Part shown: positions 1,468 through 64,000 of the stretch, piece by piece
How the letters are laid out: each line of letters opens with the position of its first letter
Numbering within the stretch: position 1 is the first letter of the stretch
Source: an uncultured candidate division Zixibacteria bacterium
Lineage (GTDB): Bacteria > Zixibacteria > MSB-5A5 > UBA10806 > 4484-95
Direction of reading: 5' to 3'
NCBI GenBank assembly: GCA_963668625.2
Contig: CAXXKA010000001.1
Span: forward strand, 480,001-544,000
Length of the DNA stretch: 64,000 nt
Notes under the pieces: generated by a model
What the model was told of the DNA's origin: nothing
Seen by the model: only the letters and a program-made list of their open reading frames with translations
Databases searched by the model: none
Made by a program: the position numbers and the translations under genes

Positions 1468-3234
1468 ATGAAGAAATTCATCTTTGCATTGACACTAGTT
1501 TCATTTGTATTCAGCTTAGCGATTGCAGCGGATACTAATTTTTCGAAAAACTCATACAAAGAGCATAAAGTAAAAGAAGCAAGCTCAGTAGATAAAGTCA
1601 ATATCCCGGATCATAATATGATCCTTCAGGGTGGCGACACCGTTAATGATGCTACAGTCATTAACGATGTAGACTTCACCGATTCAGGTACTACAGAAGG
1701 CTATACCGACGATTACGATGAACAGTGTACCTATGCTTCAGAATCACCGGATGTTGTGTATTCGTTCACTCCTGCCGAGGATATGAGTGTCACTCTCGAC
1801 CTTTATGGTTCTGGTTACGACACCAAAATCTTCGTTTACGAAAACTCCGTTACCCCTGGCGAGCCTTTTGCCTGTAACGACGATTACTGGGATGACTACA
1901 CTTCATACCTTCGCAATCTGGATATTACCGGCGGCAATACCTATTTCATCATAATTGATGGGTACGATGACGAATTTGGTAATTATGTTTTCACTATGGA
2001 ACCCGGCGATACCACTACCATTGCAGGCAATACATGTGATGACGCTATCGAAATCGCTTCGCTTCCTTACACCACAACCGGTAACTCCTGTGGTGACTTT
2101 ACCGATGAGTGCATAATCACTGATGCGCAGAGCAGCGATGTTATTTACGAATTGACTTTAGATTCGGGTTATTACCTCACCGCTTCTTTGATTGGTTCCT
2201 CCTACGATACCAAAATTGCCGTGTTTCAGGATGAGTGCTGCACGGGCGCCGGTACCGAATACCTTTATAACGATGACTTCGGTGATGACTTACAGTCACA
2301 GGTTACGGCTGCATTCCCGGCCGGTACGTACTACATCGTTGTTGACGGTTATAATGGTGCATGTGGCGATTATGCTTTAAACGTTTTTGAAGCTGATCCT
2401 CCGGCCGATGCGTCTTGCGAACAAAGTTACATTGGCCCCGATGGTGACTGGGCGTTCCAGAGAAGTGATTCCGAAGATGGTCCGTTCATCGTTTATGACG
2501 ATTTCCTTTGCGAGGACGAAACTGAGATGTGTGGCGTGAGATTCTGGGGACTCGATTTGACCTATAATGGTGGTTTTTTAGAGTGCGACGAGAATCCTAC
2601 TACCATGGAAATCAAGATTTATCCCGATAACGGCTCCTATGCGCCTGATGTTGATAATCCGATTAACACATACACCGTCGTTCCTGAAATGACTAACACC
2701 GGTGTATACTACAATAGCTCATACGAATTGATTGAGTACTATGCCGAGTTCGATTCATGCTGCCAGGTAAATGGTGGCTGGATATCGATTGAAGGCGTTG
2801 CGGATGATGGTAACCTCTGTTTCTTCATGTGGAGCTCTTCACTTGACGGCAACGGTTTAGCTTACCAATTGGACGAAGGTGTAATGGGCTTCCTCGATAA
2901 GGATCTCTCCCTGGAAATGATCGGCTCTGACGTCGATATCGATGACAATTCCGCCTCTCTGCCGATAGCCGTTGACATGATGACCAACTATCCTAACCCG
3001 TTCAATCCGACTACGACTATCGCTTTCACTCTGCAGAATCCGGGTAACGTGGCTATTGACGTTTATGACCTCCTGGGTCGTCGCGTTGATACTATCAAAA
3101 TGGGCCATCTGGATAACACTCAGGTTCACAGTGTTGATTATGACGCCAGCCGTTTGGCTACCGGCGTTTATTTCTACAACCTGATGGTTGATGGCGTACA
3201 GAAAGCTTCCGAAAGGTTCAGCTTGCTCAAATAA
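1468..3234 (+). CDS. Secreted acidic, Cys-containing protein with two tandem PPC-like beta-sandwich repeats and secretion CTD
   Basis: Signal peptide MKKFIFALTLVSFVFSLAIA; repeated DV(V/I)Y...GS.YDTKI.V...NDD...Y(F/Y)I(I/V)(I/V)DGY; terminal NYPNPFN...TGVYFY; AAGGAG RBS upstream. Confidence 0.8.
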   Translation: MKKFIFALTLVSFVFSLAIAADTNFSKNSYKEHKVKEASSVDKVNIPDHNMILQGGDTVNDATVINDVDFTDSGTTEGYTDDYDEQCTYASESPDVVYSFTPAEDMSVTLDLYGSGYDTKIFVYENSVTPGEPFACNDDYWDDYTSYLRNLDITGGNTYFIIIDGYDDEFGNYVFTMEPGDTTTIAGNTCDDAIEIASLPYTTTGNSCGDFTDECIITDAQSSDVIYELTLDSGYYLTASLIGSSYDTKIAVFQDECCTGAGTEYLYNDDFGDDLQSQVTAAFPAGTYYIVVDGYNGACGDYALNVFEADPPADASCEQSYIGPDGDWAFQRSDSEDGPFIVYDDFLCEDETEMCGVRFWGLDLTYNGGFLECDENPTTMEIKIYPDNGSYAPDVDNPINTYTVVPEMTNTGVYYNSSYELIEYYAEFDSCCQVNGGWISIEGVADDGNLCFFMWSSSLDGNGLAYQLDEGVMGFLDKDLSLEMIGSDVDIDDNSASLPIAVDMMTNYPNPFNPTTTIAFTLQNPGNVAIDVYDLLGRRVDTIKMGHLDNTQVHSVDYDASRLATGVYFYNLMVDGVQKASERFSLLK

Positions 3235-3265
3235 TTTAGTTTTCATTGTTTGAAGCTAATAAATG

Positions 3266-3295
3266 AAGCGGCGCTTGTGAAAGCGCCGCTTTTTT
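3266..3295 (+). terminator. Rho-independent terminator
   Basis: AAGCGGCGCTT-gtga-AAGCGCCGCTT followed by a T run, just after the stop at 3234. Confidence 0.8.
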
Positions 3296-3499
3296 ATTGA
3301 TCCTAAAAACCACCGGTTTATCCGGTGTGTACGTTTAAAGCGAAGCGTTTGTAAAAAGGAGGCAGGTTATCAGTAGCAACGATTGATGTTCGCAATAGCA
3401 GCACTATCGTATATCTGTCATTTAAACACCGGGCACTAGAGAAAAAATATTTAAATTACTTTTCTCTTTACATAACATTTTTCATTATCTAATTTATTT

Positions 3500-3754
3500 C
3501 ACTACTGTCCGGTCTTTTCATCTCGTTGCGAAGCGCTGCTTCGCAACGTGGCTTGTTTGCCGGCAGAATGCGCATTCTACATGATTCAAGAAGGTTTCCA
3601 AGCAGCGCTTGGAAACCAGAAAACCAAGCCTAACATCGGCAGGATATGTCAGGATGAATGATACGCTGAATAAAATAATTATATCGGAAAATATTTCTCA
3701 TTAACAATTCCAAGGAGAAATTTAAAATTTAACGAAAAACACCGGACACTAGTG
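3500..3754 (+). mobile_element. 255-bp MITE copy 1 (subfamily A)
   Basis: Ends CACTACTGTCCGG...CCGGACACTAGTG; 9-bp direct repeat AATTTATTT at 3491-3499 and 3755-3763. Confidence 0.95.
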
Positions 3755-3793
3755 AATTTATTTATTAGAGAACTGCATTGTAAAGGAGGCAGC

Positions 3794-5491
3794 ATGAATT
3801 CCCTTCTTTTTGTATTAGTATCAATCGCCTGGCTGGTATTCGCATATATCGTTTACGGCAGATTTATACAGCGTCGCCTGGTTAACCCGGATGACGAACA
3901 CGCAACTCCGGCTCATAGCCATTATGATGGCGTAGATTATTCGCCGGCGAAAACCTCGATGCTGTTCGGACATCACTTCTCCTCGATAGCCGGGGCAGGT
4001 CCGATAGTCGGACCGCTTATCGGCGTGTTGTATTTCGGATGGTTGATCTCGGCGCTATGGATCGCTATCGGCTCGGTTTTCATCGGTGCCGTACACGATT
4101 ATCTGGCGCTGATGATATCTGTCAGGAGCAAAGGCAAATCGATCAGTCTGACAGCCGAGGAAACTCTGGGCAAAGTATCCAAAGGCGTGTTCGCTACGTT
4201 CCTGTGGTTGACACTGGTGCTGGTAGTGGCGGTTTTCGCCGTGGTAGCCTCCCAGACATTTATTGCCAGGCCGGGAATCGTTATCCCGACATTTGGTCTG
4301 ATACTGGTGGCCATGTTGTTTGGCTACACCGTCTATCGCTTGAAATGGCATCTCGTGATAGGAACTATTCTGTCACTGGCGCTGGTTGGAGTGCTACTCT
4401 ATATGGGCGAGGCATTCCCAATCGTGCTCCCCGATATAGTGTTGGGATTTAAAGCATCGATAGTCTGGTTCTGGATACTGATGGCGTACTGCCTGATAGC
4501 CTCAACCATTCCGGTGTGGATTCTTCTGCAGCCGCGTGATTATATTTCCTCATGGCTTTTGTATATCGGTATGGCGCTGGGGCTGGCAGGTTTGATCGTA
4601 GCCCACCCTCACATGCACAGTCCGGCGTTCGTCTCGTTTGATTCCGCTAAAGGCCCGCTCTGGCCGATGCTGTTCGTGCTGATAGCCTGTGGCGCGGTCT
4701 CTGGATTTCATTCGCTGGTATCGGGGGGGACATCCTCCAAACAACTCGATAAGGAATCACTGGGATTGCGTGTCGGTTACGGCGCGATGCTTACCGAGGC
4801 GGCGTTGGCGGTGCTGGTAATCGCGATTGCCTCGGCGGTGCTGGTGTGGGATCCCTCCGGCAAGAATACGCAGCTTGGCTATCAATACCTGATGGGAGCG
4901 GGCGGCGGACCTATCGTTGCATTCTCGACGGGATTCGGATACCTGGTGGCGAGCTTGCCGGGTTTTACGATCGTGGCGGGGATGTATATCGGTATGCTGA
5001 TGTTAAACGCGTTCGTCATCACCACGCTCGATACAGCGACCCGTCTGGGGCGTTTTATACTAACCGAATCGTTAGGGGAGAAGGTAAAGCCGATTGGCAA
5101 TCGCTACGTGGCCACGATAATCACTGTAATTGCCGCGGCATTGTTTGGCGCTACCGGCGGTTACAGCACGATCTGGCCGGTGTTCGGTGCGGCCAATCAG
5201 TTGGTGGCGGCGCTGGCGTTGATCGTGATCTCGGCGTATCTGGTGGGTATCAAAAAGCCGCGCGTATACACGGTGATACCGGCGATATTCATGACTGTGA
5301 CGACCGTGGGCGCGCTGATATATCAGCTTATAGGATTTATCAACACCGGTAAGGTATTTCTGGCTATTGTCTCGATCGTTTTAGTAATCCTGGCGTTGTT
5401 TATGGTGTGGGAGGCCAGGGGAGTTCTTCTGTGGATGAATAACTATCGAGAGAATGAGAAAGTTTATCGGGCTAAAATGGCTGAGAAATAG
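3794..5491 (+). CDS. cstA: Carbon starvation protein A family peptide/pyruvate transporter
   Basis: FGHHFSSIAGAGPIVGP, LLQPRDY, IACGAVSGFHSL and DTATRLGRF motifs; ATG at 3794 follows AAAGGAGG (the ORF-track start at 3752 lies inside the MITE end). Confidence 0.92.
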   Translation: MNSLLFVLVSIAWLVFAYIVYGRFIQRRLVNPDDEHATPAHSHYDGVDYSPAKTSMLFGHHFSSIAGAGPIVGPLIGVLYFGWLISALWIAIGSVFIGAVHDYLALMISVRSKGKSISLTAEETLGKVSKGVFATFLWLTLVLVVAVFAVVASQTFIARPGIVIPTFGLILVAMLFGYTVYRLKWHLVIGTILSLALVGVLLYMGEAFPIVLPDIVLGFKASIVWFWILMAYCLIASTIPVWILLQPRDYISSWLLYIGMALGLAGLIVAHPHMHSPAFVSFDSAKGPLWPMLFVLIACGAVSGFHSLVSGGTSSKQLDKESLGLRVGYGAMLTEAALAVLVIAIASAVLVWDPSGKNTQLGYQYLMGAGGGPIVAFSTGFGYLVASLPGFTIVAGMYIGMLMLNAFVITTLDTATRLGRFILTESLGEKVKPIGNRYVATIITVIAAALFGATGGYSTIWPVFGAANQLVAALALIVISAYLVGIKKPRVYTVIPAIFMTVTTVGALIYQLIGFINTGKVFLAIVSIVLVILALFMVWEARGVLLWMNNYRENEKVYRAKMAEK

Positions 5492-37606: not shown

Positions 37607-37845
37607 CATTACTGTCCCGTCTGTGCTATCTCATTACTTCGCAACGCGGCTTGCCTGCCGGCATATTGCACATGTTACATGACTCAAGAAGGTCTTCAGG
37701 CCGCGCTCGGAAACCAGGGGAAAGACAGATTAAAGCTGGGTAGCTCGTGAATCGGAATATCAGTGTATTGGAGCAGAGTTTTAAATTCATCTGAATGGAA
37801 AGAACGACATCCTGAGGCGCACTTTAACCAGGCCGGGTACTATTG
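37607..37845 (+). mobile_element. Degenerate MITE relative
   Basis: Starts CATTACTGTCC; 37607-37719 aligns to the hairpin half of the MITE; possible eroded right end CCGGGTACTATTG; no TSD. Confidence 0.6.
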
Positions 37846-39111: not shown

Positions 39112-39142
39112 CATATTCGAGTCGTCAGAATAGAATCAATAA

Positions 39143-39397
39143 CACTAGTGTCCGGTGTTTTTCGCTAATTTTTATATTTCTCTTTGGAAGTGTTAGTGAA
39201 AAATATTTTCCGATATAATTATTATATTCAGCGTATCATGCATCCTGACATGTCCTGCTGATGTTAGGCTTAGTTTCCTGGTTTCCAAGCGCTGCTTGGA
39301 AACCTTCTTGAGTCATGTAGAATGCGCATTCTGCCGGTAAACAAGCCACGTTGAGAAGCAGCGCTTCGCAACGAGATGGAAAGGCCGGACAGTAGTG
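39143..39397 (-). mobile_element. 255-bp MITE copy 2 (subfamily B)
   Basis: Ends CACTAGTGTCCGG...CCGGACAGTAGTG; TSD AATCAATAA at 39134-39142 and 39398-39406. Confidence 0.95.
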
Positions 39398-39587
39398 AAT
39401 CAATAATGTTTCTTGATACATTGAAAGCCTCCGGTAAACCGTTTTTTCGAGTCGTCGGGAATCCCTTCCTGACGACTTTATTTTACCATGATCAGTCAAT
39501 AAACCGTTTGAATGTTTCGATTAGATGATATATAATATCGCCTTAACTTAGCTACGCAATTGTTATGATTGTATTGGAGCATGAGGT

Positions 39588-41438: not shown

Positions 41439-42272
41439 TTATTTGATAAGAATCATTTTCTCTGATTGATTGAAAGCGCCGGCATATATTTTATAGAAAT
41501 ATACACCGGAGGCTAATCCATCAGTTTTCCATACGACTTGATAAGAACCCGCAGGCTTAGTCAAGTTGACTAGCTCATCAACTAATTGACCAAGAATATT
41601 ATAAATTCTGATCGAAACTTCTGATTGTTCGGGAATACTGTACTTGATGATCGTTGAGGCGTTAAAAGGATTGGGATAGTTTTGATATCACTAGTGTCCG
41701 GTCTTTTCATCTCGTTGCGAAGCGCTGCTTCGCAACGTGGCTTGTTTGCCGGCAGAATGCGCATTCTACATGATTCAAGAAGGTTTCCAAGCAGCGCTTG
41801 GAAACCAGAAAACCAAGCCTAACATCGGCAGGATATGTCAGGATGAATGATACGCTGAATAAAATAATTATATCGGAAAATATTTTTCATTAACAATTCC
41901 AAGGAGAAATTTAAAATTTAACGAAAAACACCGGACACTAGTGTTTTGATATAATGAATAACTTTCGGGTATCAGCGATTGTTCATTATCTCGAGCTTCT
42001 TTTCTAAGGCGAGGATTGAAGGTAAAAGACAACATCCCATTTGAATCATCGACATTTTCGAATAATACTATTCGATTTGGTAACACTGAGATATTATAAG
42101 GATGTCTCAAATAATTGGACTCCGTTTCAGGCAATTCTACTTCATTTAATACTTTCGATAAATCCTCTGATAATTTAAAGAGGGTAGGCCCTTCAGAATC
42201 GATAGCTATTATTCCTCTCAAACATACAGTTGTATGTAAATATATTTTGATATCTATGTAATTGTGTATCAA
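41439..42272 (-). pseudogene. Secretion-CTD protein interrupted by a MITE (probably also N-terminally truncated)
   Basis: Removing the MITE and one TSD restores LYQN-YPNPFNASTIIKYSIPEQSEVSIRIYNILGQLV...SGVYFYKIYAG...EKMILIK*; no signal peptide at the start. Confidence 0.85.
41689..41943 (+). mobile_element. 255-bp MITE copy 3 (subfamily A)
   Basis: CACTAGTGTCCGG at both ends; TSD TTTTGATAT at 41680-41688 and 41944-41952. Confidence 0.96.
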
Positions 42273-45159: not shown

Positions 45160-45177
45160 TTTAGATATACCATCTTT

Positions 45178-45432
45178 CACTACTGTCCGGCCTTTCCATC
45201 TCGTTGCGAAGCGCTGCTTCTCAACGTGGCTTGTTTACCGGCAGAATGCGCATTCTACATGACTCAAGAAGGTTTCCAAGCAGCGCTTGGAAACCAGGAA
45301 ACTAAGCCTAACATCAGCAGGACATGTCAGGATGCATGATACGCTGAATATAATAATTATATCGGAAAATATTTTTCACTAACAATTCCAAAGAGAAATA
45401 TAAAAATTAGCGAAAAACACCGGACACTAGTG
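45178..45432 (+). mobile_element. 255-bp MITE copy 4 (subfamily B)
   Basis: Ends CACTACTGTCCGG...CCGGACACTAGTG; TSD ACCATCTTT at 45169-45177 and 45433-45441. Confidence 0.96.
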
Positions 45433-46784
45433 ACCATCTTTCTAACATTAATTTCATTGTTAAACTTGACTGTTAAGAAATAAACACCAGTAGAAATATA
45501 GTTTTCATACGGCGACCAATTAAATGAATGCTCTCCTTCAGAAACATCACCTTCAAAAATATTCGCGACTTTTCTTCCAAGAACGTCAAACACCTCAATA
45601 TCCAATTTACCAGCAAAATTACAATACAGATTAATATTAGTATGGGCATTAAATGGATTTGGATATACAGTCGCTGAAAATGATTGCGGGAGATTTATCT
45701 TTTCATCGATATCCGTTTGCTCGATTTTCAGTTTCTCACAAATCAAATAATTATTTCTGCTAAATATAACTTCATCATACCCATCACCATCAATATCTCC
45801 TGCTGCCAATATTGATATCGGTTCAATGGGGCTTGAATGAGCTAAAACTTCCATATCCCCATTAAATAATACCATTTTATTTTGCCCTTCATGAATTGTA
45901 CTGATTATCAATTCATCGTGAAAATCACCTGTTACGTTTAATGCCTTAAAACAGGAAGAACTCGTATATTGTGGAAACTCTGCAGTACTATATGAATAGA
46001 ATTCTGTATCGGATTTATGGAGGATTAAGTGGTTGCTTGCATATAAGCAATAGGCGCTGTAAATAATATCATAGTCTGTTGAATCGTAGTTGCCAAAAGC
46101 ATGTTCAAAATTGACGTTCGAATCATAATCACAGTGAAGTAGAGTACGATCCGAAAGAAGATTGAAATCCAAATCATAAAAAAATATATACAAGTTTCCA
46201 TAACCTTCCAGGTTGCTTAAATAATCCCAGCCTATGCATGTATCATCATAAATATAAAAATTAGCACAGGGATAACCTATATATTTGGCTTCATAATCCC
46301 AGTTGCTTAGATTTATTTGATATCCAAAAGCTGCGGATATAAAATCAAGATAAGGAATATCATCTCTTCTGAAGAAATGAATATAACTTATTGGGTAAAT
46401 AAGGTATCCTGGCCACTCTAAATAGCCATCAGGATTATTTCCGAAATAAGTATATATGCTAATAGGAACCTCAGATGAATTTGTTCCGGCAAAATAATCA
46501 ATTAATCCGTCCGATTCAATATCCCCCATTTCTATGGCATTCATAGCACCGATACTTGTGTCTGCCCAGAGAATATCGCGGGTTGATCCATCATATATAT
46601 AGATGCCATTGTCGGTGCTTATAAAAATATCATCAGCATCATCATTATTTACATCATAGAGTTTTATACTCCTTGACGTGATTGAAATGCTATCAATAGG
46701 CTCAAACCTTAGCAAATCATATTGGGCGTGAGATGAAATTGAAAATAAGACGATTAGTACAATTATTTGATAGTATTTACTCAT
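45357..46784 (-). CDS. Secreted FG-GAP-like protein whose CTD end was replaced by a MITE-derived tail
   Basis: Signal peptide; DVNNDDADD, GDIDGDGYDE; the original end RKMVYLK* survives beyond the MITE (stop at 45156-45158). Confidence 0.85.
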   Translation of the reverse strand: MSKYYQIIVLIVLFSISSHAQYDLLRFEPIDSISITSRSIKLYDVNNDDADDIFISTDNGIYIYDGSTRDILWADTSIGAMNAIEMGDIESDGLIDYFAGTNSSEVPISIYTYFGNNPDGYLEWPGYLIYPISYIHFFRRDDIPYLDFISAAFGYQINLSNWDYEAKYIGYPCANFYIYDDTCIGWDYLSNLEGYGNLYIFFYDLDFNLLSDRTLLHCDYDSNVNFEHAFGNYDSTDYDIIYSAYCLYASNHLILHKSDTEFYSYSTAEFPQYTSSSCFKALNVTGDFHDELIISTIHEGQNKMVLFNGDMEVLAHSSPIEPISILAAGDIDGDGYDEVIFSRNNYLICEKLKIEQTDIDEKINLPQSFSATVYPNPFNAHTNINLYCNFAGKLDIEVFDVLGRKVANIFEGDVSEGEHSFNWSPYENYISTGVYFLTVKFNNEINVRKMVTSVRCFSLIFIFLFGIVSEKYFPI

Positions 46785-56469: not shown

Positions 56470-56528
56470 TGATACAAGCAGATCCCCATCGCCTTGCGGC
56501 TCCTCAGGAGCTACAGCTCCTGAGCTAC
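56470..56528 (-). repeat. REP / right half of a REPIN
   Basis: Minus GTAG-CTCAGGAGC-tgta-GCTCCTGAG; matches 57158-57215. Confidence 0.85.
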
Positions 56529-56536
56529 TCGCGGCA

Positions 56537-57040
56537 TCATTCTCCGAATTCGCCATCAAGATTGTCGAGTTCTATCGCTCCCCAGTCTCTTGTGTAAACT
56601 CCATCCGCTATGTATTCATGTATTGAGGAATACTGCCAATCACATGGCCGCGATACTAAACCATGTTTGACTGGATTATAATGAATGTAATTAATGTGAT
56701 TATTTAGATCATCCTGGTCTCTAATTATATGATCCCAGAATCGGTTTTGCCACACTCTTCCGCTATTCATGTTCATTTTAACACGATATAACACTCCGAA
56801 ACTCATTTTGATTTTCTGCAAAATCTTTGAGGGATTTTTATTACCGGCCTCAAGAATAATATGAAAATGATCAGGTAAAATAACTCTAGCTAACAAGCTA
56901 AATTGTGATGATTGGAAAGTGTTACTAATAGCTTTGTTTAAAATATCTATATTATCAATAAGGATTGGATTTCTATTATAAGTTACATTCGTGATAAAAC
57001 AAATATCATCTGGTTTAAAATATCGTTTAATCTTGGTCAT
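56537..57040 (-). CDS. REP-associated tyrosine transposase (RAYT, Y1 HuH family)
   Basis: FITNVT..R, VILPDHFH (HuH), WQNRFWDHIIRD, INYIHYNPVKHGLV, WQYSS; flanked by GTAG REPs. Confidence 0.92.
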   Translation of the reverse strand: MTKIKRYFKPDDICFITNVTYNRNPILIDNIDILNKAISNTFQSSQFSLLARVILPDHFHIILEAGNKNPSKILQKIKMSFGVLYRVKMNMNSGRVWQNRFWDHIIRDQDDLNNHINYIHYNPVKHGLVSRPCDWQYSSIHEYIADGVYTRDWGAIELDNLDGEFGE

Positions 57041-57110: not shown

Positions 57111-57215
57111 GTAGGTCGGCGAGCTGTAGCTCCCGACACGGGGTGGGGAAGCCCGGTTGATACGAGCAGCTCCCATCGCCTTGTGGCTCCTCAGGAGCTA
57201 CAGCTCCTGAGCTGC
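57111..57215. repeat. Complete REPIN (inverted REP doublet)
   Basis: GTAGGTCGGCGAGCTGTAGCTCCCGAC...CTCAGGAGCTACAGCTCCTGAGCTGC. Confidence 0.88.
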
Positions 57216-58833: not shown

Positions 58834-58924
58834 TGGATAAAGCATAGTGAGTATTAAAATGATACTTTTAAGTTGCACTTCCTGACTGCCTAATAAGTAT
58901 TAGTAATTTATAAATATAATATTT

Positions 58925-59179
58925 CACTAGTGTCCGGTGTTTTTCGTTAAATTTTAAATTTCTCCTTGGAATTGTTAATGAAAAATATTTTCCGATATAA
59001 TTATTTTATTCAGCGTATCATTCATCCTGACATATCCTGCCGATGTTAGGCTTGGTTTTCTGGTTTCCAAGCGCTGCTTGGAAACCTTCTTGAATCATGT
59101 AGAATGCGCATTCTGCCGGCAAACAAGCCACGTTGCGAAGCAGCGCTTCGCAACGAGATGAAAAGACCGGACACTAGTG
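58925..59179 (-). mobile_element. 255-bp MITE copy 5 (subfamily A)
   Basis: CACTAGTGTCCGG at both ends; TSD ATAATATTT at 58916-58924 and 59180-59188. Confidence 0.96.
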
Positions 59180-59269
59180 ATAATATTTGATAATTATCTA
59201 AATATAGAAATTGTTAATTTTATAGCTATTACTAGGAGGAGTAGAAAAATAATACAGTATCTTACTATG

Positions 59270-62463: not shown

Positions 62464-62481
62464 TGAGTTTTTAAGTATTAT

Positions 62482-62734
62482 CACTGCTGTCCGGCCTTTC
62501 CATCTCGTTGCGAAGCGCTGATTCGCAACGTGGCTTGTTTGCCGGCAGAATGCGCATTCTACATGACTCAAGAAAGTTTCCAGGCAGTGCTTGGAAACCA
62601 GGGCACTAAGCCTAGTATCGGCAGGACATGTCAGGATGCTGATACGCTGAATATGATAATTATATCGGTAAATGTCTTTCACTAACAATTCCAAAGAGAA
62701 ATATAAAATTTACCGAAAAAACCGGACACTAGTG
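62482..62734 (+). mobile_element. 253-bp MITE copy 6 (more diverged)
   Basis: Ends CACTGCTGTCCGG...CCGGACACTAGTG; imperfect TSD AAGTATTAT/AAATATTAC (7/9). Confidence 0.9.
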
Positions 62735-62901
62735 AAATATTACGGTATTATATGGCTTTATACAATTTAATCCTTGCAACTCTCCCCGTATTTACCCGTA
62801 CAATAAATTCAACGAGCTTAATTCGCTTTTAAATGGTTAAGTACGTATAAAATCATTAAGCCATCAACACAATAACCAACTCAAACCAGAAGGAGCCATA
62901 A

Positions 62902-63747: not shown

Positions 63748-64000
63748 CACTAGTGTCCGGTGTTTTTCGTTAAATTTTAAATTTCTCCTTGGAATTGTTA
63801 ATGAAAAATATTTTCCGATATAATTATTTTATTCAGCGTATCATTCATCCTGACATATCCTGCCGATGTTAGGCTTGGTTTTCTGGTTTCCAAGCGCTGC
63901 TTGGAAACCTTCTTGAATCATGTAGAATGCGCATTCTGCCGGCAAACAAGCCACGTTGCGAAGCAGCGCTTCGCAACGAGATGAAAAGACCGGACAGTAG
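63748..64000 (-). mobile_element. MITE copy 7 (subfamily A), cut by the window end 2 bp before its terminus
   Basis: Starts CACTAGTGTCCGG; body matches copy 5; ends CCGGACAGTAG. Confidence 0.93.

Follow-up and report, generated by a model that had tools for sequence, protein, structure and literature searches.

A REPIN-type hairpin doublet inside a MITE with IS4-type ends in an uncultured Zixibacteria genome

REP-type palindromes are normally spread by a small tyrosine transposase, a GTAG tag is typical of the best-studied REP families, and REPINs have been argued to persist only through their own RAYT. REPIN/RAYT systems have been described by Bertels and Rainey in 2011 (PMC3116915, PMC3337134). 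In Coxiella burnetii, Wachter et al. 2018 (PMC5896051) describe QMITE2 as a MITE with terminal inverted repeats (TIRs), 7-11-nt direct repeats and a GTAG REP palindrome inside; its short TIR-less forms are called "essentially REP elements", and it is both associated with an IS110/IS1111-family element and a target of IS1111. REP dimers with different stems are reported by Di Nocera et al. 2013 (PMC3733652), where REP dimers are also described as regularly embedded in longer palindromic tracts, as for GTAG-15 of Anabaena variabilis and CGTC-1 of Halothiobacillus neapolitanus. Bacterial MITEs derived from insertion sequences include Correia/NEMIS, RUP and Nezha (PMC3733652), and both REP and MITE hairpins have been reported to affect transcripts in other bacteria (PMC3733652, PMC5896051).

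Here we describe a hairpin doublet lying within a MITE in a window of 64,000 nucleotides, by which we mean the whole stretch of DNA that was analysed; positions given without a contig prefix are those of this window. We consider it probable that the doublet is a REPIN of a REP/RAYT lineage that was captured between IS4-family TIRs and spread as a MITE by a DDE transposase, with the hairpins as neutral passengers. A limited literature search on REPIN/RAYT systems and REP-bearing MITEs found no description of an IS4-derived MITE carrying a REPIN.

The hairpin doublet and its carrier

The doublet occupies positions 3521-3620 on the plus strand. Its first hairpin, H1 (3524-3548, plus strand; type GTTGCGAAGC), reads CGTTGCGAAGC-gct-GCTTCGCAACG and its second, H2 (3593-3617, plus strand; type GTTTCCAAGC), reads GGTTTCCAAGC-agc-GCTTGGAAACC. 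Both were obtained by direct reading and by the repeat finder and are present in the predicted fold, and each has 11-nt arms that are 100% complementary and enclose a 3-nt loop, making it a REP unit in the usual sense of a short (~20-40 bp) hairpin-forming palindrome. Between H1 and H2, positions 1, 5 and 7 of the left arm and the mirror positions of the right arm differ, and direct reading and the repeat finder thus agree with a sequence-only reading of this DNA, which had claimed that the six differing positions form three compensatory pair swaps. The 14-bp palindrome that the same reading had placed between the hairpins is likewise present (AGAATGCGCATTCT, 3565-3578) and reads the same on both strands; it takes no part in the minimum-energy fold of this MITE copy.

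The interval 3521-3620, which was also found by the profile search described below, was returned by the repeat finder as an inverted repeat with 81% complementary arms (3521-3547 and 3594-3620) and 46 nt between them, so that two inverted REP units are separated by a short spacer, as in a REPIN. Folded as single-stranded DNA, it forms two local hairpins and no single long stem, with an energy of -29 kcal/mol (z = -4.76) that was equalled by 0 of 200 shuffled sequences. Perfect hairpins with a stem of at least 9 bp and a 3-nt loop number 193 in the 4.3-Mb genome, and 143 of these 193 belong to the H1/H2 hairpin family. Given the shuffle energies and the rarity of such hairpins genome-wide, the doublet is not a product of chance. 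Exact copies of H1 are found at 56 places in the genome and of H2 at 51.

The carrier is a non-coding MITE of 255 bp with IS4-type ends (3500-3754, plus strand), whose boundaries were set from the alignment of its copies and from the flanking duplications. The 9-bp sequence AATTTATTT stands on the left at 3491-3499 and in identical form on the right at 3755-3763. The left TIR (3500-3518, plus strand; CACTACTGTCCGG...) matches both ends of a 1266-bp IS4-family element at 12/13 bases, and the right TIR (3736-3754, minus strand, on which it reads CACTAGTGTCCGG) is identical to that element at 13/13 bases. In the alignment of copies the ends of the MITE are CACTA(C/G)TGTCCGG... and ...CCGGACACTAGTG. 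The right internal part (3618-3735, plus strand) is unrelated both to the REPIN and to the candidate parent element.

A blastn search of the source genome (4.30 Mb, 10 contigs) with positions 3480-3775 gave 126 HSPs, among them 81 near-full MITE copies at 76-100% identity: 37 at 96% or above, 13 at 90-95% and 31 below 90%. The 9-bp target duplication is perfect in 54 of the 81 and has one mismatch in 9 more, and the targets are AT-rich (18% GC), with A at position 1 in 37/54 and T at position 9 in 43/54. Within the window, blastn places further copies, with approximate limits, at 39134-39399 (C1:519134-519399; minus strand, 92% identical), 41682-41943 (C1:521682-521943; plus, 98%), 45175-45433 (C1:525175-525433; plus, 93%), 58923-59194 (C1:538923-539194; minus, 98%) and 62476-62736 (C1:542476-542736; plus, 89%), and another at 63748-64000 (C1:543748-544004; minus, 99.6%) that is cut by the end of the window. 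An old, decayed copy in which the doublet is still visible lies at 37635-37720 (C1:517635; plus strand) and aligns to MITE positions 1-212.

Two further features lie in or close to the MITE at 3500-3754. A promoter-like match (TTAACA, 16 nt, TAAAAT; 10/12, a match to the consensus only) is located at 3701-3728 on the plus strand, in the right part of the element, and faces outward to a downstream ORF starting at 3795, which we take, by eye from its first residues, to be CstA-like. A solo right-TIR sequence (AAACACCGGGCACTAGAGAA) at 3424-3443, 57 nt upstream of the MITE and 90% identical to 3737-3756, may be the remnant of another element with the same ends.

The 1266-bp element is present in six genomic copies that are 100% identical, with CACTAGTGTCCGG at both ends and perfect 9-bp duplications at 6/6 copies. 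Its 389-aa ORF contains DUF4372 and DDE_Tnp_1 and scores 255 bits against the NCBIfam IS4 family transposase model (cut-off 115). The A-N7-T target bias is the same for this element and for the MITE. The MITE and the 1266-bp element have only their ~20-bp ends in common, the doublet is absent from all six of its copies, and the end sequence is common to further repeats in the genome. The TIRs, the target duplication of fixed length and the presence in the same genome of an autonomous element with the same ends are those of a MITE. The 1266-bp element is its likely parent, and the shared ends, duplication length and target bias suggest that the MITE was mobilised in trans by the IS4 transposase.

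An IS110-family (RNA-guided) element of ~1.47 kb is present in five identical copies (C8:130.5-132.0 kb, or L040:717-2190; C6:580719; C5:24267; C4:59085; C1:622813), one of which interrupts a decayed MITE in its right part, immediately 3' of a truncated doublet. The doublet was considered as the bridge-RNA region of this element and the idea was rejected: the ~1.47 kb shared by the five copies starts only beyond the doublet, and no doublet adjoins four of the five. The copies inspected stand in or beside another palindrome, GGTGnCAGGAA / TTCCTGnCACC.

Doublets outside the MITE and the RAYT genes

A doublet profile was built from the MITE doublet and candidate relatives and was used in an nhmmer search of the genome, which returned 147 non-overlapping doublet loci, 108 of them overlapping MITE BLAST hits and 39 not. 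The doublets are dispersed in many copies with conserved stems, as is required of a REPIN. The set of 39 is not clean, since the locus at C1:517635 is an old MITE and that at C1:310314 is joined to a MITE half. The 39 doublets have the form CCCCCT-CGTTACGAAGC-gcy-GCTTCGTAACG, then a spacer variable in length and sequence, then GGTTCCAAAGC-rgc-GCTTTGGAACC-AGGGGG. The 5' flank of the hairpin is CCCCT(C/G) in these copies and TCT(C/G) in the MITE, and the GTAG tag is absent. Because non-MITE REPINs and MITE copies are both confined to intergenic DNA, we make no claim about their mutual clustering.

The ORF at C4:43960-44487 (176 aa) has HIH and YIHSNP motifs, scores 115 bits against the NCBIfam model REP_Tyr_transpos (NF047646; cut-off 80) and aligns, with the HUH and Tyr motifs included, to E. 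coli TnpA-REP (4ER8; E = 1.1e-6). With an HUH motif, a catalytic Tyr and a score above the family cut-off it is a predicted RAYT gene. It is flanked by four doublets, two per side (C4:43617, 43759, 44501 and 44643), with a 143-bp period. Their hairpin-to-hairpin offset of 69 nt is that of the MITE doublet, and a third, central 8-bp hairpin (GTGGCAGA/TCTGCCAC) is found where the MITE has its 14-bp palindrome. Compared with these sister REPs, the MITE stem H1 is one compensated pair apart and H2 two pairs, and in the first REPIN upstream of the gene, a G.T intermediate, the left arm is of the MITE type (CGTTGCGAAGC) and the right arm of the free type. Exact MITE-type stems (GTTGCGAAGC / GTTTCCAAGC) flank no Y1/RAYT gene in the source genome, and this counts, together with the lack of a GTAG tag, against the origin that we favour.

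The four REPINs around the C4 gene (L036:1071-1310 and 1955-2195; C4:43.6-44.8 kb) have the same orientation and form tandem units of 143 bp. The gene itself is AT-rich by eye, in a genome of 45% GC.

Eight Y1_Tnp matches were found in the genome. Four of the ORFs were scanned against NCBIfam and 4/4 pass the RAYT model; hairpins lie to both sides or to one side of three of these four, with a separate hairpin type for each gene. A second RAYT gene is predicted in the window at 56537-57040 on the minus strand (167 aa; 139 bits against NF047646, cut-off 80). An unrelated hairpin of its own, CTCAGGAGC-taca-GCTCCTGAG, flanks it on both sides (56503-56524 and 57190-57211) within a direct repeat of ~40 nt; this hairpin has 13 genomic copies at up to 3 mismatches.

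A search of 40 related genomes did not find the full MITE, and in 7 of them the hairpins alone match: both other species of the genus, one genome of the same family and four from another family of the order. RAYT relatives with identities of 51%, 49% and 48% in G017, G009 and G012, all of other genera, have flanking hairpins of the same design, whose stems differ yet stay complementary (GGTAACCAAGC/GCTTGGTTACC, GTTACCAAGC/GCTTGGTAAC and GGTAACGAAGC/GCTTCGTTACC). A pattern search in five relatives returned 1 to 30 hairpins of this design in each and 0 with the reversed control pattern. In a congener (G002), an exact H2 is followed ~75 nt on by the right TIR, CCGGACAATAGTG; this looks like a truncated MITE copy, and the composite is probably older than the source species. 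A genome of the same family but another genus (G009) contains a 267-bp MITE, e.g. at L071:1501-1767, that has the same TIR and a different, GC-hairpin-rich interior; ends of the IS4 type have, in related genomes, given rise to unrelated MITEs. Matches to the same TIR number 139 in G009, many of them at contig ends.

In metagenomes, the H1 stem CTCGTTGCGAAGC-tcc/tct-GCTTCGCAACG occurs as singletons in nine unrelated contigs (L121-L129), several of them visibly GC-rich, with no TIR-like site within 350 bp and no visible H2 partner, and a metagenome scan for the TIR-H1 junction gave 0 matches. These singletons suggest that the hairpin design has spread well beyond the source lineage. A search of wider genome contigs with the C4 RAYT gave five distant planctomycete loci at 22-28% identity, which are uninformative.

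These distributions bear on the converse relationship, in which the non-MITE doublets would be fragments or derivatives of the MITE interior and not its source. When ten "doublet-only" BLAST loci were aligned to the window's own MITE copy, eight continued into at least one TIR region and are old, decayed MITE copies, as a derivation from the MITE would have it. Hairpins of the same design nevertheless occur in 7/40 relatives whose genomes gave no full MITE and also flank the RAYT relatives of other genera, the non-MITE doublets combine very variable spacers with conserved stems, and the nine metagenome contigs have the H1 stem with no TIR within 350 bp; we regard a derivation from the MITE as barely credible. 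We infer that the REPIN was captured by the MITE and not the reverse.

Covariation and decay of the stems

Within the MITE, the stems were compared over 81 copies and 22 pairs, or 1782 stem cells, of which 1678 show the consensus, 52 a single mismatch, 43 a single G.T, 1 a double mismatch and 8 gaps. Not one of the 96 changed stem cells is compensated. A single subfamily change at 3601 accounts for 29 of the 43 G.T cells. Rare alleles amount to 0.80 per stem site and 0.75 per non-stem, non-TIR site (p = 0.77). This equal density, together with the lack of compensation, indicates that the MITE hairpins decay like the rest of the element after insertion. At position 3601 the 29 of 81 copies with G for A, which gives the G.T in H2, all belong to older subfamilies, and the stem of the young burst is perfect.

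This neutral decay is among the points against the hairpins being working parts of the MITE, such as a terminator or RNA-stabilising stem, a host-factor site or a subterminal transposase-binding site, with only a secondary likeness to REPs. Such a role would fit the weak T-rich run that follows H1, for which a terminator-like call was obtained on the plus strand, and the effects on transcripts of REP and MITE hairpins reported in other bacteria (PMC3733652, PMC5896051). Stems that are unconstrained after insertion in 81 copies argue otherwise, as do a candidate parent element without such hairpins and a MITE with the same TIR and a different interior in G009. An Rfam scan of 2500-4500 also returned no family that fits the MITE, and its four weak matches all lie at 3081-3303 and are below the gathering scores. 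A functional role of this kind is improbable in our judgement.

The doublets outside the MITE behave differently. Stem cells of the 39 non-MITE doublets comprise 615 with the consensus, 23 compensated, 31 G.T, 54 mismatched and 3 double mismatches, and the 23 compensated cells compare with 9.8 +/- 2.2 after shuffling (maximum 18 in 1000). Departures from the consensus affect 10% of cells in the stems and 34% in the spacer.

A cross-genome set of 75 REP units was assembled from the source genome and eight others, selected by the inner AA[AG]C-NNN-G[CT]TT core alone; every match was kept, including eight rows that by eye do not look like REPs and the MITE H1 and H2. In this set 89.9% of cells pair against 75.7% after shuffling (0/500), 115 cells are changed on both sides against 40.7 (0/500) and the covariation score is 0.365 against 0.129, with the caveat that related sequences can outscore shuffles without any structure. 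Controls in which the pairing was slid gave 30-42% pairing, and these controls and the swaps between genera argue against such an artefact of kinship. The selection made no use of the seven outer pairs, and three of these seven each have at least three frequent pair types; columns 13:25, for example, are GC in 34 units, AU in 17 and CG in 12.

Compensated stems of this kind could also arise mechanically and without structural selection, through template switching or gene conversion in quasi-palindromes. Mutation by template-switch correction is well established for quasi-palindromes, and a deletion at C10:343322-343508 that joins the right arms of H1 and H2 indicates that slippage does occur at these repeats. 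An active correction process should, however, reach the MITE copies too, where 0/96 changed stem cells are compensated, and compensated changes are confined to the non-MITE REP population and to comparisons between genomes. We therefore hold a purely mechanical origin to be very improbable.

Compensatory variation that keeps the stem, as expected of a REPIN, is thus found among REP units and was not seen within the MITE copies. The sequence-only reading had proposed that selection acts on structure and had suggested a covariation analysis of all copies. Its proposal holds for the REP/RAYT lineage, in which REP units beyond the MITE covary beyond chance (23 against 9.8 and 115 against 40.7), and fails for the 81 MITE copies, which show no covariation and change at the same rate in stem and non-stem positions. 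Strong covariation in the one population and its absence in the other indicate that structure is selected in the REP/RAYT lineage and not in the MITE passengers. The difference between H1 and H2 is a standing contrast of two REP types in a heterodimeric REPIN and did not evolve inside the MITE.

Origin of the composite and comparison with known systems

The origin that we favour may be set out as follows. The doublet would be a REPIN, and its REP family the presumed single-stranded DNA substrates of a RAYT (an HUH/Y1 tyrosine transposase). One REPIN variant would have come to lie between the TIRs of an IS4-family insertion sequence, giving rise to the 255-bp MITE, which the IS4 DDE transposase would then have amplified in trans to more than 100 copies, with 9-bp duplications in AT-rich DNA. 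The perfect, compensated stems would have been inherited from the REP/RAYT lineage, in which presumably only hairpin-forming copies replicate, and the MITE-borne hairpins would be passengers that decay neutrally after each insertion. The shared ends, the duplications and the adjacency of gene and repeats point to the IS4 transposase as the putative enzyme of the MITE and to the RAYT as that of the REPIN.

The notion of a chimera, in which a REP/HuH-type hairpin module is spread by a DDE MITE, came from the sequence-only reading and is supported by the RAYT-flanking doublets, the IS4 ends and the 9-bp duplications. Its MITE part agrees with the TIRs, the target duplications and the IS4-family DDE element with the same ends, and the doublet that it had proposed to look for outside the MITE and beside a Y1/RAYT gene was found: 39 of 147 loci have no MITE overlap and four, of the sister types, flank the C4 RAYT. 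The genome holds two populations of one hairpin design, one linked to a RAYT, conserved and covarying, the other borne by a MITE and decaying neutrally. This second population supplies an internal neutral comparison for the idea that selection on hairpin structure takes place during replication. The element further illustrates how a DDE transposon can spread the substrates of a single-strand transposase across a chromosome.

Three loci may reflect ordinary recombination at palindromes or may be traces of RAYT action on MITE hairpins. The doublet at C1:363052 aligns to the MITE over positions 17-125 only and is a MITE-type doublet without TIRs; another of the ten "doublet-only" loci, C8:691377, aligns to MITE positions 15-158. 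At C1:310175-310425, the right half of a MITE (minus strand) is fused, in or beside the H2 loop, to a free-type REPIN, and could have arisen by recombination between a MITE-borne and a free REP. C10:343322-343508 is a deletion variant of the MITE in which the stretch from the H1 right arm to the H2 right arm is missing. The spacer of the free-type REPIN at C1:310175-310425 resembles that of the REPIN at C1:321404, and the two BLAST pieces at C10:343322-343508 overlap by 10 nt, as expected for slippage between similar arms.

The MITE-borne hairpins might still be recognised by a RAYT, so that each MITE copy would also be an active REPIN, open to cutting, copying or recombination by the tyrosine transposase. 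The TIR-less doublet at C1:363052 and the junction at C1:310175-310425 would both be explained in this way, and the first upstream REPIN of the C4 RAYT, which pairs the MITE-type CGTTGCGAAGC with a free-type right arm, places the two types one step apart. Yet the stems of the 81 MITE copies decay neutrally with 0 compensated cells, which would be unexpected if copying needed intact hairpins, a TIR-less MITE-type doublet was found once only, slippage or ordinary recombination can also yield hybrid junctions at palindromes, and the exact MITE-type stems flank no RAYT. Such double mobility is unlikely on this evidence, although, in view of the junction at C1:310175-310425 and the doublet at C1:363052, MITE-borne hairpins may not be wholly inert. 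It is a similarly doubtful prospect that the REPIN lineage changed its vehicle, the IS4 ends having freed it from the RAYT, with the MITE hairpins perhaps still recognised by resident RAYTs. If it were so, most REP hairpins of the genome would now be replicated by a DDE transposase, more than 100 MITE copies would be targets of a tyrosine transposase, with two unrelated transposition chemistries acting on one 255-bp element, and the C1:310175-310425 junction and the C1:363052 doublet would be traces of this dual chemistry.

The capture of a REPIN between IS4-family ends, which remains our preferred account, places the element among several described systems. Like the REPIN/RAYT systems (PMC3116915, PMC3337134), it comprises two inverted REP palindromes with a short spacer, scattered between genes in dozens of copies, with conserved stems and a variable spacer, and a RAYT gene has repeats of the sister types on both sides. 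It differs from those systems, as they are described there, in having no GTAG tag and two REPs with different stems (a heterodimer), in the presence of at least four RAYT genes, and in that 108/147 doublet loci overlap MITE hits and so lie inside a DDE-type MITE. The resemblance to the E. coli REP/BIME system with TnpA-REP (4ER8) lies in the alignment of the RAYT over the HUH and Tyr motifs and in the tandem 143-bp arrays of REP pairs, which resemble BIME clusters, whereas the similarity reaches only E = 1.1e-6, the REP sequence and tag are other, and the activity here is putative.

The heterodimeric REPs and the longer outer palindrome are shared with the embedded REPs of Di Nocera et al. (PMC3733652), whose outer palindromes are presented, in the passages that deal with them, without a link to a transposase or to target duplications, whereas the present outer repeat is a TIR that belongs to an identified IS4-family element. 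IS-derived MITEs (PMC3733652) are likewise below 300 bp, with TIRs, target duplications, many copies and an autonomous IS with matching ends; in the present element the interior is unrelated to the candidate parent IS and is partly a REPIN. With QMITE2 (PMC5896051) it has in common a REP palindrome within an element bounded by TIRs and repeats, and a short TIR-less form. The passages on QMITE2 name no parent transposase or RAYT, and its REP is of the GTAG type, whereas here a whole heterodimeric REPIN lies inside, and the genome contains a candidate IS4 parent as well as a RAYT with sister REPINs; the palindrome that the local IS110 element targets is another one. A REP-containing MITE is thus already known from Coxiella, and the present element joins the same kind, extending REP-in-MITE composites to a little-studied uncultured lineage in which the candidate parent IS and the RAYT can both be named.
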